IMG/VR virus record: IMGVR_UViG_3300022538_001114
Origin: a virus
Reading direction: 5' to 3' (one strand)
DNA: 19,369 bases
Below, in pieces: positions 5,964 through 10,130 of this stretch. The position numbers and the translations under genes are program-made. The notes under the pieces are model-generated. The model made no database searches. It was not told the origin of the DNA and saw nothing but the letters and a program-made list of their open reading frames with translations. Position 1 is the stretch's first letter. Every line of letters begins with the position of its first letter.

Positions 5964-7655
5964 TTACTTCTTTTTGATGATGGAATATAGTTTTTTGTTT
6001 TCATAAAATAATACATTAAGACCATCATTGCATAATTTCATTGTTGTGTTAATATCAGGATCAGTAATTTTATCAATCTCCGGTCTAGCAGGATCTCGTC
6101 TAAAAATTTCTATTGTACCGTCTGATAATATGGTTATAACAATTCCATTGGCTAATGATACAAAATTTATATCTTGTAAATCAACATCTTCAATTTTTCT
6201 ACAATGATATTTTTTATATAATTCATCAAAACGGATTATAAATAGATCGTAAATATTACCTTTAAGACCAGTTAGTATGACAACTCCATTTTCATGTTTA
6301 GCATTTATAATTTTATAACCATTAATCTCAGGAATTTCCATTTCAAAATATGATGTGTCTTCTCCAGCTTTTGGTACTGGAATTACAAAATATGGTTTTC
6401 CCATTATAAGTTGATAAATTATTCCATCAAATATTTCACTAGTAGTAGGCATGATATTCCACGATGAATTAACAAATGCCACAATTTTGTTTCTCATATC
6501 AAGAAAACCAATCTCATCTAAATCCGATCCACTGGTTATAAATAAAGAATTATCTACTACCATCATGTTATTAGCACTAAGAATTTGATATGATAAACTC
6601 TTATTTTTATCTAAACATTTTAGTTTAAGACTTTTATCCTCTATCTTAGCTAAAATCAGATTTAAATCTAAATCTGTAATAAGGAGATCAACTCCAGTAT
6701 TTACCTTATAGTGGATATTATCAATCCATATTCCACTTTTTGTCCTGACCACTTTTCTTCCAAATATATTTTTATGAGAAACTATATAATCATCATATTC
6801 CTTGGTATAAGTAATTTCAAAACTATCTGTATTTGTAATAACTCTAATTGTTACTGGAATAATAGTAACAGTTCCAGGTAGAAGAGGTGGCGTAGATCTT
6901 TTACCCTTTTCGAAGAGATCTTTATACCATTCTTTATAATGAGTTGGTATTAAATCAAAACCTCTTACTGATCTAGGTAGTCTTACATCTGAATTGAAAA
7001 TAGAAACATGATCTTTCATTCTTCCCTTAATATCTGCTCTATTATATTTATTATGACTTCCTCTAAACGGATGTATTCCAAGGAAAAGGTAACAGGTAAT
7101 AATGGCGAATGAAAACCAATCGGTTAAAGTGTTAAAGGTATTGGATGTCCAATCTCTCACGTTCGGATTTATTGCTGTAGCAGGAAAGTTTGGGGTTTCC
7201 CAAGCATTTATATCAATAAATCCAGGAGTTATCCAATCCCAATTTACGATGATATTCATATCGTTAATGTCGACTAATAAGAATCCCCTTTCATGAACTT
7301 TTTGAATAAAACTTTTTATATTTTCAACAAGATCTACTGAATGGGAATTACTTATTCCATTATCATTTCTAAATCCAGTTGTATAAAGTTTTATTAATGG
7401 ATCTCCAATAGCTTTATTCATAGTAAAACCAATAGGTTTCTTTTTCCTATTTAGAATAAGATCTTTTGGGACAAATATATTAGAAATTTTCAAACTTTGT
7501 AGCTCCTGAATTTTTTCTGGTGGAATCATATGTTTTGGATCATGGAATATTTTATAAACCGTATTTCCTTTTATCCAAACTTTAGCTTCTCCACCTTGTT
7601 TAAAATCAGAGGGATCCACGGTTACAGGTTTTTTACCTTGAATTAAAATTTGCAT
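5964..7655 (-). CDS. Ser/Thr protein kinase (eukaryotic-like kinase fold) with a ~300-aa beta-rich C-terminal domain.
   Basis: 563 aa. Gly-rich loop region FKQGGEAKVWIKGNTVYKIF. Catalytic-loop-like LLVDINDMNIIVN (D..N). DFG-equivalent GFIDINAW. TDWFSFAIITCYLFLGIHPF resembles subdomain IX. The SD AAGGAGGG is embedded in the 3' end of the PP2C gene, and the stop and start are adjacent (TAAATG). Confidence 0.65.
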   Translation of the reverse strand: MQILIQGKKPVTVDPSDFKQGGEAKVWIKGNTVYKIFHDPKHMIPPEKIQELQSLKISNIFVPKDLILNRKKKPIGFTMNKAIGDPLIKLYTTGFRNDNGISNSHSVDLVENIKSFIQKVHERGFLLVDINDMNIIVNWDWITPGFIDINAWETPNFPATAINPNVRDWTSNTFNTLTDWFSFAIITCYLFLGIHPFRGSHNKYNRADIKGRMKDHVSIFNSDVRLPRSVRGFDLIPTHYKEWYKDLFEKGKRSTPPLLPGTVTIIPVTIRVITNTDSFEITYTKEYDDYIVSHKNIFGRKVVRTKSGIWIDNIHYKVNTGVDLLITDLDLNLILAKIEDKSLKLKCLDKNKSLSYQILSANNMMVVDNSLFITSGSDLDEIGFLDMRNKIVAFVNSSWNIMPTTSEIFDGIIYQLIMGKPYFVIPVPKAGEDTSYFEMEIPEINGYKIINAKHENGVVILTGLKGNIYDLFIIRFDELYKKYHCRKIEDVDLQDINFVSLANGIVITILSDGTIEIFRRDPARPEIDKITDPDINTTMKLCNDGLNVLFYENKKLYSIIKKK

Positions 7656-8429
7656 TTATCCCTCCTTTTTTATAAGAAATGCACCAATTGAAATATCGTC
7701 GAAATGAAAATTTTTATCATTTTCATATGTTGATATAAACCTTATCATTCTTCTTTGAAGAAATGATCCATTAGTAGTTTTGAAACTAACACATTCTTTT
7801 ACTACTTCTTTTATATTAGTTCCTGGATTAAAAGATCCTATTCCATCAGAGGCGATTGCTATTGTTTTAAATAGATAAACAGGAAAGTTCCATATATTAG
7901 GATCACTATAATCAGATTCTAAATCAGAACCAATAAAGGTTTTTACTTTTTTTTTAATTTCTTTTTTTCTGTATGATTCTAGATTATCTGGAGATAGATT
8001 ATATGATAAGTAAAATGGATAACTATCAGTAAATGAAACTTCACAATATGAAATTCCTCCATCATTATTTTCAAGGATAATATAACCATCACCATACATA
8101 TGAACACAAATATAATTATTATGGTAATATGAGATAATTAGAGTTGATGATAAACATGTTGTATCAATTTCTAAAACCCTAGTCATGATTTCGGCGTTAG
8201 ATATAATATTAAAACCCATCTTGTTATGATCAAGTTTTCCAAGACTATTTTTCCAAGTTTTTATATATTTTTCTGCTGATAAACATAACAATCTAGCGCC
8301 AATATCTGTATTTTTAGCTCCAGTACTTCCATCTGCTAAGATTATATAGTCATAACCTTTAATTATATAATCTTCACATATGAAATGACTTTTTCCAATT
8401 TTAGTAAATATATCATTTGTTATTAACAT
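7656..8429 (-). CDS. PP2C-family Ser/Thr protein phosphatase.
   Basis: 257 aa. ILADGSTGAKNTDIGARL (ADGxGG-type metal motif), IAIASDGIGSF (second DG motif) and C-terminal DDISIGAF (compare DDiTvvvv). Confidence 0.7.
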   Translation of the reverse strand: MLITNDIFTKIGKSHFICEDYIIKGYDYIILADGSTGAKNTDIGARLLCLSAEKYIKTWKNSLGKLDHNKMGFNIISNAEIMTRVLEIDTTCLSSTLIISYYHNNYICVHMYGDGYIILENNDGGISYCEVSFTDSYPFYLSYNLSPDNLESYRKKEIKKKVKTFIGSDLESDYSDPNIWNFPVYLFKTIAIASDGIGSFNPGTNIKEVVKECVSFKTTNGSFLQRRMIRFISTYENDKNFHFDDISIGAFLIKKEG

Positions 8430-8440
8430 AGATCCCCCAT

Positions 8441-8472
8441 AGGTGGGCTCCCTACTATATGAGAGCCCACCT
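8441..8472 (-). promoter_or_regulatory. GC-rich intercistronic hairpin, member 2 of the GGTGGG/CCCACC family, between the vWA and PP2C genes.
   Basis: AGGTGGGCTC-cctactatatga-GAGCCCACCT, a 10-bp stem with a 12-nt loop, 12 nt upstream of the PP2C ATG. Confidence 0.5.
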
Positions 8473-8477
8473 CCAAA

Positions 8478-9242
8478 TTAAAATGTTAACTGACTTGGTC
8501 CTCCCGATCCCAGTACTTTGGATGTATCGCTGGTTATGGAACTTACCTGAAGGATTATCTTTTTGATGGCATCGTCGGTAAAATCATCAATGTCATGATA
8601 TTCCGAAAGGTTTGCTTTAACTTGAAACTCTGAGAGTTTCTTTGATACATAATTTTTCCAGTTAATATCACTGGAATTTGGGTTAACTCCGACGAGGATA
8701 GTTCTAAAACTTTCGATTTTTTCTCCTCTCATTGCCCGGTCGGTATTGTCTTTAATATCTTCTGCATCAAGATCTGATGCATTGTCATCACCATCAGTAA
8801 CGATAACTAAGATTCCATTTACCGCGAATTCTTCATCATATAGATGCTCCGCTTCAACTAGGGTTGCTTCTATTGAAGAACCTACAGCATCGAATAAAGG
8901 AGTTCCGCCGTCACAATAAATTCCGGTATAGTCTTTTGAGGGTTCTATGTCCTGAAGAAGCTTAAATCCGTGGATTTCTTTTACTCCAACTTCGTTGTTG
9001 AAAACTACCACTCGCCAAAGAATATTTTGAGCAGTATCTTCATCTTGAAGTTTTTCAACAATCTCGGACATGATTCTTTCAAGATCTTTTTCACGACCCC
9101 CTAAACTTCCGGTTATGTCAATATTCAGGGTTCCGAGTGTATAACTGGTTGCTAGTAGTCTTTCGATTGAAACACGAGAATATTGAAAACCTCCTGCAAT
9201 TGTTATAGTATCAGAACCAATGTCGTCCGCTAGTTTTCCCAT
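8478..9242 (-). CDS. von Willebrand factor A (vWA) domain protein, TerY-like.
   Basis: 254 aa. MIDAS-like DITGSLGG (DxSxS variant DxTGS). Later GGTPLFDAV and ILVIVTDGDDN (TDG motif). SD AAAAGGAGG upstream. Confidence 0.7.
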   Translation of the reverse strand: MGKLADDIGSDTITIAGGFQYSRVSIERLLATSYTLGTLNIDITGSLGGREKDLERIMSEIVEKLQDEDTAQNILWRVVVFNNEVGVKEIHGFKLLQDIEPSKDYTGIYCDGGTPLFDAVGSSIEATLVEAEHLYDEEFAVNGILVIVTDGDDNASDLDAEDIKDNTDRAMRGEKIESFRTILVGVNPNSSDINWKNYVSKKLSEFQVKANLSEYHDIDDFTDDAIKKIILQVSSITSDTSKVLGSGGPSQLTF

Positions 9243-9266
9243 ATAAACCTCCTTTTAATTTGTCAG

Positions 9267-10130
9267 TTATATTGGATCAGTTGAAAGTGCAGTTCTCATT
9301 CCAGCCGCTAATGCTTCATCCATAAAGGAATCTGTAAACGATTTGAAAAGGTCACCGGTTTCAGGTGAGTCGGGAATTGCGCTGGTACAATCTGTCAGCA
9401 ATACGATTTTCTTTACGTTTGCCGGATCGAAATTTCTGATAATATCCAGCATGGTATGTCGGACGCAAAAGTTAAGCGCCTCGCCGGCAAAATAAATATT
9501 ATCAAAACTTTGAAGTTTATCAATGAAGGGTTTGTTCAGCGCTGTAGTTTTGTCCCTCGGATCAATAACTGCTGCTGCCATACCAGAATAATGTTCGGTC
9601 CAAGGATTTGAACCTTTTGTAACATGGTCGATGGTTGCCACATATTTCCTTTGACATTCAATCATTGCAAGCATAACATTTTCTTGAATAGAGGCACCAA
9701 CTGTTCCGATTTCACAATGAGGAACCCAGACAGTGAGAATATATCGCCCATCGTCTTCCAATTTTTTGAGGTAGTCAATACCTTTTTGCTGATGGTGTAT
9801 GTTCGGACTGTTGATTCTCCAGATTCCATCTTTTGCTTCCTGATAAGATATTAAAGAAAAGGGATCAGGATGATTTCCGTCTCTATCAACCCACATTATA
9901 GGGGTTGCTATATGGAGATTGTGAAGATCATGAGTTGGTGAAATGTCATCCAGTTTAGATCCATTTCTTCGAATGAATGCTTCCACTCTTTGTGCATCAT
10001 CATATGCACCGGGTACCGGAAGATATCCTTCAATTCTTCCATCTGGGTAAATACCATAACGAACAACGTCCATGAAGTCATTCTGCATATCAACGATTAC
10101 CAATGAGTTCTTTGTTTTCTGTTTTGCCAT
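9267..10130 (-). CDS. Isochorismatase-family cysteine hydrolase, nicotinamidase (PncA)-like.
   Basis: 287 aa. N-terminal LVIVDMQNDF signature. Candidate metal-binding THDLHNLH. Catalytic Cys in FAGEALNFCVRHT. SD AAGGAGG upstream. Confidence 0.7.
   Translation of the reverse strand: MAKQKTKNSLVIVDMQNDFMDVVRYGIYPDGRIEGYLPVPGAYDDAQRVEAFIRRNGSKLDDISPTHDLHNLHIATPIMWVDRDGNHPDPFSLISYQEAKDGIWRINSPNIHHQQKGIDYLKKLEDDGRYILTVWVPHCEIGTVGASIQENVMLAMIECQRKYVATIDHVTKGSNPWTEHYSGMAAAVIDPRDKTTALNKPFIDKLQSFDNIYFAGEALNFCVRHTMLDIIRNFDPANVKKIVLLTDCTSAIPDSPETGDLFKSFTDSFMDEALAAGMRTALSTDPI

Follow-up and report, generated by a model that had tools for sequence, protein, structure and literature searches.

A conserved four-gene cassette of phages and bacteria that links a nicotinamidase-like enzyme to a vWA protein, a PP2C phosphatase and a protein kinase, with a possible role in NAD+ salvage

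Four open reading frames, all on the minus strand, span positions 5964-10130 of the window, a 19,369-nt stretch of viral DNA (IMG/VR record IMGVR_UViG_3300022538_001114), in the order nicotinamidase, vWA protein, PP2C phosphatase, kinase. Their coordinates and strand are exactly those given in a preliminary description of this DNA. The features of the locus are:

10131..10394, minus strand: intergenic region upstream of gene 1, 264 nt (RNA fold z = -2.1)
9267..10130, minus strand: gene 1, predicted divergent PncA-type nicotinamidase, 287 aa
8478..9242, minus strand: gene 2, TerY/YegL-type vWA protein, 254 aa
8441..8472, minus strand: 12-bp GC-rich intercistronic RNA hairpin in the vWA-PP2C spacer (RNA fold -24.7 kcal/mol, z = -3.4)
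7656..8429, minus strand: gene 3, PP2C-family Ser/Thr phosphatase, 257 aa
5964..7655, minus strand: gene 4, kinase with a beta-propeller, 563 aa
6873..7655, minus strand: N-terminal eukaryotic-type Ser/Thr kinase domain of gene 4, approximately residues 1-261, with invariant catalytic residues
5964..6872, minus strand: C-terminal 7-bladed beta-propeller of gene 4, residues 262-563, and the stop codon

Inspection of the sequence identifies the ribosome-binding site AAGGAGGT ahead of both gene 1 and gene 2, GGGGGA ahead of gene 3 and AAGGAGGG ahead of gene 4. The successive intergenic gaps are 24, 48 and 0 nt, the last because the TAA stop codon of the PP2C gene directly abuts the ATG of the kinase gene. 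Thus, the strong Shine-Dalgarno sequences and the coupled PP2C/kinase stop and start described previously are present, but the range of 0-24 nt reported for the gaps is incorrect, given the 48-nt spacer between the vWA and PP2C genes. The hairpin in this spacer lacks a U-tract and is located where the per-gene GC3 falls from 0.29-0.33 to 0.13-0.18.

The region upstream of gene 1 contains a long imperfect hairpin (approximately 10255-10399), a terminator-like hairpin with a U-run (approximately 10197-10249), an AT-rich stretch and the ribosome-binding site of gene 1; an Rfam search of this region yields no match. This structured leader and a nearby MVP gene had been pointed out as features outside the TerY-P description, and neither is conserved with the cassette: the related locus L001 has no equivalent region, with the ligase gene placed directly against the first cassette gene, an exact 25-nt probe from the leader hairpin finds zero matches among viral contigs, and the MVP gene is present in just 3 of about 240 loci. 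Most simply, the upstream region represents the end of the preceding RtcB operon together with the start of the cassette operon and does not belong to what is conserved in the cassette; both the leader and the MVP gene are incidental to it.

Gene 1 appears to encode a divergent PncA-type nicotinamidase with the isochorismatase-like fold. The single protein scores 25.6 bits with the Pfam Isochorismatase profile (cut-off 27) and 23 bits with the NCBIfam nicotinamidase/pyrazinamidase model PRK11609 (cut-off 174), which places it in a divergent subfamily and not among the equivalogs. The best member of the family matches PRK11609 with E = 4.5e-14, and the NCBIfam nicotinamidase/pyrazinamidase model is the sole one matched by 52 of the 62 family members, in all cases below the equivalog cut-off. 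The six top PDB matches of the family profile (A3) are all nicotinamidases, including yeast Pnc1 (2h0r, E = 2.6e-18). The catalytic triad D14, K172 and C222, which aligns with the Pnc1 motifs, and the metal site D68, H70 and H138 are invariant among the 62 sequences; H138 belongs to the WPxHC motif, which reads WPPHC in gene 1 and is aligned to WPVHC of Pnc1. Compared with Pnc1, the protein is extended at its C-terminus and contains an insertion of about 25 aa (profile positions ~70-117 against Pnc1 residues 68-89). The substrate is probably nicotinamide, for which the frequent proximity of PncB is indirect support.

A Pfam search with the gene 2 protein itself produces no match, and its assignment as a vWA protein with a MIDAS-like motif, already made in the preliminary description, is upheld by the family and by the predicted structure. 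Among the 63 family members, 18 match VWA_2 and 16 match VWA, and a single one matches vWA-TerF-like. The AlphaFold2 model (pLDDT 88.3, pTM 0.87) is matched by Foldseek to the integrin alpha-M I domain (E = 7e-10, probability 1.00), with ArnB and the NorD vWA among the other structural matches. The MIDAS residues D42, T44, S46, T114 and D150 form the pattern D-I-T-G-S ... T114 ... D150, compared with D-x-S-G-S in the family consensus, and the MIDAS columns are invariant. Several homologs are named 'YegL' by JGI, which we take to be the TerY-type COG. The C-terminal region carries the conserved motif S-x-S-I-S-S-x-S-Q-x-L-G-S-G-G-P-S-Q-x-L-x-F; the last ~11 residues of this motif are modelled as disordered, and the Ser-rich segment is mostly helical in the model rather than an exposed loop.

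The gene 3 protein is recognized by the Pfam profile PP2C_2 above the cut-off (33 bits against 24, E = 5.6e-8), and the metal-binding motifs D33-G34, G113-D114-G115, D195-G196 and D244-D245 are retained in 58 homologs. For gene 4, the Pkinase profile yields 18.8 bits, below the cut-off for the single protein, and is recorded in about half of the family; the residues K35, E51, D129, N134 and D148, as well as the subdomain IX-X motifs D179-W180 and H195-P196, are invariant in 36 homologs. The kinase domain shows weak similarity to those of LanL/LanKC. Visual inspection of the C-terminal ~300 aa reveals no evident Cys cluster, and the beta-propeller is presumed to be an input or docking domain of the kinase. 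Thus, both the PP2C and the kinase folds stand, the latter on family-level evidence; in the protein-by-protein Pfam comparison, PP2C_2 passes, and Pkinase and Isochorismatase, below the cut-off for single proteins, are confirmed at the family level.

Examination of gene neighbourhoods shows that the adjacency of these genes is not unique to this contig. The cassette is present in more than 100 large phages and bacteria. Among non-redundant viral loci collected with the kinase, 58 of 71 contain all four genes on one strand, 54 of these 58 in the order nicotinamidase, vWA, PP2C, kinase; a collection seeded with the nicotinamidase contains all four genes in 58 of 79 viral loci. Bacterial chromosomes share the gene order, e.g., a 4.38-Mb Capsulimonadaceae chromosome. 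Because the order is kept in more than 100 independent loci, a chance arrangement is excluded, and the proposed joining of the triad and a nicotinamidase-like hydrolase in one operon is borne out. Within 10 kb on either side of the kinase gene, each of the four cassette families is found in 74-82 loci and the next most common family in 22, so that the four genes alone are conserved in their neighbourhoods, which agrees with the earlier suggestion of a module in its own right. The link to the nicotinamidase, noted at the outset as foreign to the published TerY-P triad, proves to be the most robust feature. The association is recovered from both search directions. The nicotinamidase and vWA genes are nearly always directly adjacent (median gap 50-65 nt), and in the rare permuted loci the nicotinamidase-vWA and PP2C-kinase pairs stay together. 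A comparison with five relatives shows parallel divergence of all four proteins (71/73/50/66% identity down to 43/37/34/40%). Phage cassettes are often interrupted by small unrelated genes, and some bacterial loci contain the kinase, or PP2C and the kinase, with no nicotinamidase or vWA gene detected, to which short contigs and crude ORF calling contribute.

After the four cassette genes themselves, the most frequent neighbours are PncB (NAPRTase), which ranks first, Nudix, NadE (NAD synthase), NADAR and NadD-like proteins, the latter in 11 viral loci. Of 84 viral loci, 48 have at least one of these NAD-related genes within 10 kb, as do 41 of 80 genome loci. The gene order in the closest relatives is DNA ligase, nicotinamidase, vWA, PP2C, kinase, small PRTase, PncB, NadE; the close relatives L245 and L246 encode PncB and NadE in addition to the nicotinamidase. 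In bacterial loci, PncB directly follows the kinase, NrtR lies beside the cassette and NadE precedes it; the Nudix neighbour is NrtR in the three bacterial loci examined. PncB, NadD and NadE are absent from the 19-kb window, where the nicotinamidase is the only enzyme of this route. Together, the nicotinamidase link and the NAD-gene neighbourhood point to NAD+ salvage instead of the sensing of metal or tellurite stress proposed for the TerY-P triad.

Given that the cassette recurs beside NAD-recycling genes, its probable function is a first step of NAD+ salvage under the control of phosphorylation. The specific version of this hypothesis, namely, a salvage unit in which a putative TerY-P-like phospho-switch acts on the nicotinamidase, has in our estimate an even chance of being correct. 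The gene 1 product would convert nicotinamide, the cleavage product of NAD+, to nicotinate, which PncB, NadD and NadE would return to NAD+ via the Preiss-Handler route, and the products of genes 2-4 would constitute a reversible switch attached to this enzyme. The kinase, with its propeller as the input or docking part, may phosphorylate a partner, the likeliest target being the Ser-rich C-terminal region or flexible tail of the vWA protein; PP2C would remove this phosphorylation; and the vWA protein, through its MIDAS metal site, might bind or release the nicotinamidase and so turn the activity or assembly of this enzyme on and off. During infection by large lytic phages, such a cassette could maintain NAD+, also under cleavage by host NADase defences; in bacteria, it is located within NrtR-linked NAD-homeostasis operons. 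Points against this reading are that nicotinamidases are not known to require such control and that the Ser-rich vWA segment is mostly helical in the model.

An unlikely alternative is that the cassette is an immune or superinfection-exclusion system of the TerY-P type, present in the phage as well as in bacteria, with the triad as the sensor of an invader and the nicotinamidase-like enzyme as an accessory or effector; the model would be the stand-alone TerY-P defence of Gao et al. 2020. The vWA, PP2C, kinase order and the TerY/YegL-type vWA fit the TerY-P architecture (PMC11090510), TerY-P modules are described as defence systems, and NADAR and Nudix neighbours are known from conflict systems as well. 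However, the PADLOC models give no match to the window proteins (the presence of TerY-P models in PADLOC v2 being unconfirmed), only noise for the 63 vWA family members and only weak generic kinase matches for the bacterial members. The C-terminus of the kinase is a propeller, the flanking genes are those of NAD biosynthesis, its regulator and phage replication rather than defence islands, and a nicotinamidase, which does not deplete NAD+, would make an unlikely toxic effector.

The nearly constant adjacency of the nicotinamidase and vWA genes, the invariant Asp-His-His metal site of the former and MIDAS of the latter, and the structural similarity to NorD could also suggest, by analogy with CoxE, NorD and CobT/ChlD, that the vWA protein acts as a chaperone in metal insertion into, or maturation of, the metal-dependent nicotinamidase, with an energy-dependent cycle driven by the kinase/phosphatase pair instead of the usual AAA+ partner. 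This appears rather improbable: an AAA+/MoxR partner is encoded in none of the loci, nicotinamidases elsewhere take up metal unaided, and a kinase-driven metallochaperone has no known precedent.

Some phages encode Ser/Thr kinases directed at host proteins, e.g., T7 gp0.7, and the small genes often inserted between phage cassette genes would be compatible with a looser link, in which the nicotinamidase performs salvage alone and host proteins are reprogrammed by the kinase and the phosphatase, for which the vWA protein would serve as an adaptor. We consider this improbable because the four-gene order is shared by bacterial chromosomes, for which a takeover of the host has no meaning, and because the association is seen from both search directions, with no other gene conserved nearby. 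Finally, the scores below the Pfam cut-off and far below the equivalog cut-off, together with the conserved insertion and C-terminal extension of this divergent subfamily, makes it possible that the enzyme hydrolyses another amide in vivo (e.g., NMN or a nicotinamide-containing or other signalling nucleotide), the removal of which the triad would control, but the catalytic triad, metal-site residues and WPxHC motif are those of nicotinamidases and the most frequent neighbour, PncB, uses nicotinate, so that this reading has little likelihood.

Of the known systems, TerY-P is the one whose triad the preliminary description matched to the cassette. TerY-P was introduced by Anantharaman, Iyer and Aravind (2012) and also occurs as stand-alone defence (Gao et al. 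2020) and as a CoCoNuT accessory (PMC11090510). TerY-P and the cassette share an operon in which a TerY-like, MIDAS-bearing vWA protein is followed by a PP2C phosphatase and then by a Ser/Thr kinase, and a phosphorylation-dependent switch is the presumed mode of action. The C-terminus of TerY-P kinases is a zinc ribbon in the CoCoNuT type or an OB fold in the defence type of Gao 2020 (PMC11090510), whereas the cassette kinase bears a ~300-aa 7-bladed beta-propeller; the cassette adds the nicotinamidase as an apparently obligate fourth partner; and its surroundings are those of NAD+ salvage, in contrast to the tellurite-resistance, restriction or defence-island settings of TerY-P. Thus, the order and architecture of the proposed TerY-P match hold and strict membership does not, given the propeller and the PADLOC result: the cassette has the TerY-P architecture yet is not a strict TerY-P member.

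The archaeal ArnA-ArnB module (PMC12852372, PMC6509490) offers a precedent for such a switch, its vWA protein being under the control of a eukaryotic-type kinase and a phosphatase. In this archaellum module of Sulfolobus, the state of a vWA complex is switched by a kinase and a Ser/Thr phosphatase (PMC6509490, PMC12852372, PMC7472852), but the phosphatase is PP2A where the cassette has PP2C, the other partner is an FHA/zinc-ribbon protein, the output is motility gene expression with no enzyme client, and the cassette is not homologous to it at the operon level.

With respect to metabolism, NrtR-controlled PncA/PncB operons for Preiss-Handler salvage (PMC2330246) have already been described, as have the 'NAD-jumbo phages' (PMC11662467), large phages that carry the entire Preiss-Handler gene set. 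Cassette loci resemble them in placing a PncA-type nicotinamidase next to PncB, NadD, NadE and NrtR. The cassette subfamily of PncA is longer (~265-290 aa) and nearly always accompanied by the triad. The main text of PMC2330246 uses 'kinase' in unrelated senses only and does not contain 'phosphatase', and that of PMC11662467 contains none of 'kinase', 'phosphatase' and 'von Willebrand'; we found no description of a phosphorylation-controlled first step of NAD+ salvage by such a cassette. The phage pathways NARP1 (Adps and Namat), NARP2 (Nampt and Nmnat) and NARP3 (PnuC and NadR) rebuild NAD+ from breakdown products or precursors and are used against NAD+-depleting immunity. In contrast to all three, the cassette would enter by nicotinamide deamidation (PncA followed by PncB, NadD and NadE), and it carries a putative dedicated control layer composed of a kinase, a phosphatase and a vWA protein.

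The cassette occupies positions 5964-10130 of the window and consists of four genes, the coordinates of which the preliminary description had given exactly, together with a short structured spacer:

9267-10130, minus strand: gene 1, nicotinamidase (profile matches and invariant residues)
8478-9242, minus strand: gene 2, vWA protein (family Pfam matches and AlphaFold2 model)
within the 48-nt spacer: intercistronic hairpin, 12 bp, GC-rich
7656-8429, minus strand: gene 3, PP2C_2 phosphatase (above the Pfam cut-off, metal-binding motifs conserved)
5964-7655, minus strand: gene 4, kinase with a predicted propeller (invariant residues and predicted structure)

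The hairpin was absent from the preliminary description, which placed the gaps at 0-24 nt; the measured gaps are 24, 48 and 0 nt, so that the first and the last agree and the middle one does not. Strong ribosome-binding sites, claimed for all four genes, are found at genes 1, 2 and 4; that of gene 3 is weaker.

Taken alone, the gene 1 protein scores 25.6 bits with Isochorismatase, just short of the cut-off of 27. A profile built from 62 homologs retrieves nicotinamidases as the six best PDB matches, with yeast Pnc1 first (2.6e-18), and 52 of the 62 family members match one single NCBIfam model, nicotinamidase/pyrazinamidase. The catalytic triad Asp14-Lys172-Cys222 and the metal site Asp68-His70-His138, including the WPxHC motif, are invariant. 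Because of these matches and the invariant triad and metal site, gene 1 is assigned, at the sequence level, to PncA as a divergent subfamily that has an internal insertion and is extended at the C-terminus.

A Pfam search with the gene 2 protein itself gives no match, and the vWA profile finds nothing in the PDB by sequence. Among the 63 family members, 18 match VWA_2 and 16 match VWA; several homologs are named YegL by JGI. The AlphaFold2 model, with a pLDDT of 88.3, has structural matches to integrin I domains (E = 7e-10). The MIDAS residues are invariant, and the C-terminus contains a conserved Ser-rich motif, with a disordered tail, G-S-G-G-P-S-Q-x-L-x-F. The N-terminal part of the gene 4 protein is a eukaryotic-type protein kinase with invariant Lys35, Glu51, Asp129, Asn134, Asp148 and subdomain IX-X motifs; its C-terminal 300 residues are predicted with high confidence (pLDDT 91.4) to form a 7-bladed beta-propeller, similar to many propellers but to no family in particular. 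Clustered at 50% identity (E <= 1e-30), the kinase family comprises at least 1,335 clusters with a uniform length of about 560 aa, and, among the matches listed, almost none of the source-database names goes beyond the generic. Because the family is so large and its names are almost all generic, naming its context would make for better annotation in many genomes of phages and bacteria.

The adjacency of the four genes extends far beyond this contig: the same cassette is present in many viral loci and in bacterial chromosomes. Loci were fetched with the kinase (80 viral and 80 genome loci) and with the nicotinamidase (79 viral loci), and their ORFs were searched with HMMs built from the window proteins; the kinase-seeded viral loci came from an alignment-based scan of viral contigs, a single-sequence kinase scan of the same contigs having been unsuccessful. 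All four genes, always on one strand, are found in 58 of the 71 non-redundant kinase-seeded viral loci, in 54 of these 58 in the order nicotinamidase, vWA, PP2C, kinase; the few permuted loci retain the nicotinamidase-vWA and PP2C-kinase pairs intact. The nicotinamidase-seeded search recovers all four genes in 58 of 79 loci. Small unrelated genes frequently interrupt the series. Bacterial carriers, both chromosomes and metagenome-assembled genomes, include Armatimonadota, Acidobacteriota, Gammaproteobacteria, Desulfobacterota, Spirochaetota and others; a 4.38-Mb Capsulimonadaceae chromosome is among the examples. In the window, third-codon-position GC is 0.33 for the nicotinamidase, 0.29 for the vWA, 0.13 for the PP2C and 0.18 for the kinase gene (7656-10130), and the GC-rich hairpin lies at the step between the vWA and PP2C genes. 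A recent mosaic joint at this boundary is ruled out by the parallel divergence of the four proteins across five relatives of the window; as far as their sequences indicate, the four proteins are inherited as a unit.

When all ORFs of the kinase-seeded loci are clustered, the four families occur in 74-82 loci and the next family in only 22. The next commonest neighbors are all NAD-related, namely NAPRTase (PncB), Nudix, NAD synthase (NadE), NADAR and a NadD-like adenylyltransferase, and 48 of 84 viral loci and 41 of 80 genome loci have at least one such gene no more than 10 kb away. Bacterial examples are L121, in which PncB is directly 3' of the kinase; L127, L150 and L164, which have the NAD regulator NrtR on a flank of the cassette; and L150 again, with NadE upstream of it. 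The gene order in the closest relatives of the window is DNA ligase, nicotinamidase, vWA, PP2C, kinase, small PRTase, PncB, NadE, the ligase being of the NAD+-dependent type in two of them. PncB, NadD and NadE are all missing from the window, which spans only 19 kb.

Several additional genes adjoin the cassette. In Acidobacteriota, the gene after the kinase encodes a protein of about 740 aa (L127 11719-13938; also L109, L115, L118, L120, L122, L134, L138 and L139); the one scanned, from L127, has an N-terminal SAM-methyltransferase domain, and this protein may be a lineage-specific fifth component. The window's closest relatives have a small PRTase-like protein (140-148 aa) beside the kinase or before the nicotinamidase, as follows:

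L001: 12046-12468
L002: 11698-12144
L244: 6822-7247
L245: 9611-10036
L246: 11705-12142

This protein is missing from the window and rare elsewhere, and its presence in only five loci rules it out as a fifth component. A 374-aa protein of unassigned function (window 4445-5569) is located after the kinase in the window; it has no match in Pfam, PHROG, PADLOC or NCBIfam. Homologs are located between the vWA and PP2C genes in L005, L007, L009, L013 and L014, which suggests that the gene is a mobile insert. The ribosome-binding site, ATG and first codons of this gene recur in a 53-nt tandem duplication (window 5533-5646; 2.2 copies with 98% identity), which creates a short upstream ORF.

Two further elements that the preliminary description linked to the cassette, a structured leader and an MVP gene, do not belong to it. 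The predicted fold of the 264 nt in front of gene 1 is only modestly more stable than that of shuffled sequence (z = -2.1). Rfam has no family for this stretch and the relatives do not share it, which rules out a riboswitch or conserved regulator; it probably combines the terminator of the preceding operon with a promoter region. At 10255-10399 of the window (minus strand), directly after an 83-aa ORF and before a terminator-like hairpin, lies a long, imperfect hairpin spanning about 145 nt; it likewise matches nothing in Rfam, and an exact 25-nt probe from it is absent among viral contigs. The MVP-like gene (window 13874-16420, minus strand) encodes a genuine MVP homolog of 848 aa, with MVP_shoulder at E = 2.5e-28 and one vault repeat; it matches no PHROG family, and full-length homologs with 41-46% identity are encoded on jumbo-phage contigs (L210 and L047/L049). 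MVP is ruled out as a module member, and its adjacency is incidental, because only 3 of about 240 loci have it together with the cassette.

The window itself is a phage-like contig of about 30% GC with nearly all genes on the minus strand, which also encodes an ATP-dependent DNA ligase, RNase H and a split RtcB RNA ligase. Its genes have their closest relatives on contigs of 110-300 kb with T4-type capsid (Gp23) and portal genes. A megablast search of the whole window against GenBank phages gives no match, and tblastn matches only three or four uncultured huge phages, all unannotated. A tRNA search of the window found none, and terminator and promoter scans performed no better than on shuffled sequence. 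The RtcB gene (10651-12190, minus strand) is split by an insert at 11344-11608; its upstream part ends ...GTLGGG and its downstream part restarts NHFIELQ..., so that a 265-nt ORF-less insert lies within the conserved GGGNHF motif. The insert is probably a self-splicing intron; Rfam detects no family in it even at E <= 10, and nothing credible in the leader or the intercistronic hairpin. Elsewhere, RtcB is uninterrupted in L060; the interruption measures about 200 nt in L059 and, in L011/L190, about 1.1 kb. The window further encodes a 323-aa protein with a PAS domain (194-1165, minus strand; PAS_9, E = 7.6e-10), on this phage contig, and a ROS/MucR-type regulator (17339-17989).

The most economical reading of the cassette, for which gene identities, conservation and genomic context are documented here, is that it provides the entry step of Preiss-Handler NAD+ salvage and that a dedicated, reversible phospho-switch controls this step; we infer the wiring of the switch and the physiological role. 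Gene 1 would convert nicotinamide to nicotinate, the entry to this pathway; the propeller would serve as an input or docking domain of the kinase; the vWA protein would be the likely phospho-substrate and a MIDAS-dependent binder of the nicotinamidase; and the PP2C would reset the switch. There is a precedent in archaeal ArnA-ArnB, where a eukaryotic-type kinase and a phosphatase switch a vWA protein. The likely benefit to a phage would be NAD+ sustained or rebuilt during infection, also against NADase defenses. A more speculative and, in our estimation, rather doubtful extension is that the cassette provides phosphorylation-gated entry to a fourth, Preiss-Handler-based NAD+ reconstitution route in jumbo/T4-like phages and diverse bacteria, with the switch sensing NAD+ cleavage or infection state and turning the nicotinamidase on. 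If so, this would be the first TerY-P-type triad with an identified enzymatic client and would give a first access to the working of these triads.

TerY-P triads occur widely and have been reported to function in anti-phage defense; we know of no established mechanism or targets for them. NAD+ depletion and reconstitution is a very active front of the phage-bacteria conflict (NARP1-3); a route through nicotinamidase, regulated and encoded by large phages, would contribute both a new pathway and a new control layer. Jumbo phages with Preiss-Handler genes (PMC11662467) and NrtR-controlled pncA-pncB operons (PMC2330246) are already known; term searches of these papers found no kinase, phosphatase or vWA partner of nicotinamidase. 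Nor was such a partner found in the NARP1 preprint and of PMC9503650, a 2022 survey of viral NAD+/ADP-ribose systems (term searches), or in the NARP3 abstract; the original 2012 TerY-P paper lies outside this coverage. By the definition used here (PMC11090510), the TerY-P likeness proposed in the preliminary description stands for the vWA-PP2C-kinase order and the TerY-type vWA protein and fails at the C-terminus of the kinase, which ends in a predicted propeller, whereas the TerY-P kinase ends in a zinc ribbon or OB fold; PADLOC defense models, too, give no TerY-P or other defense assignment for the cassette. A triad of TerY-P architecture is tied, in more than 100 loci, to one easily assayed enzyme, nicotinamidase, so that the target of the switch becomes a directly testable question.
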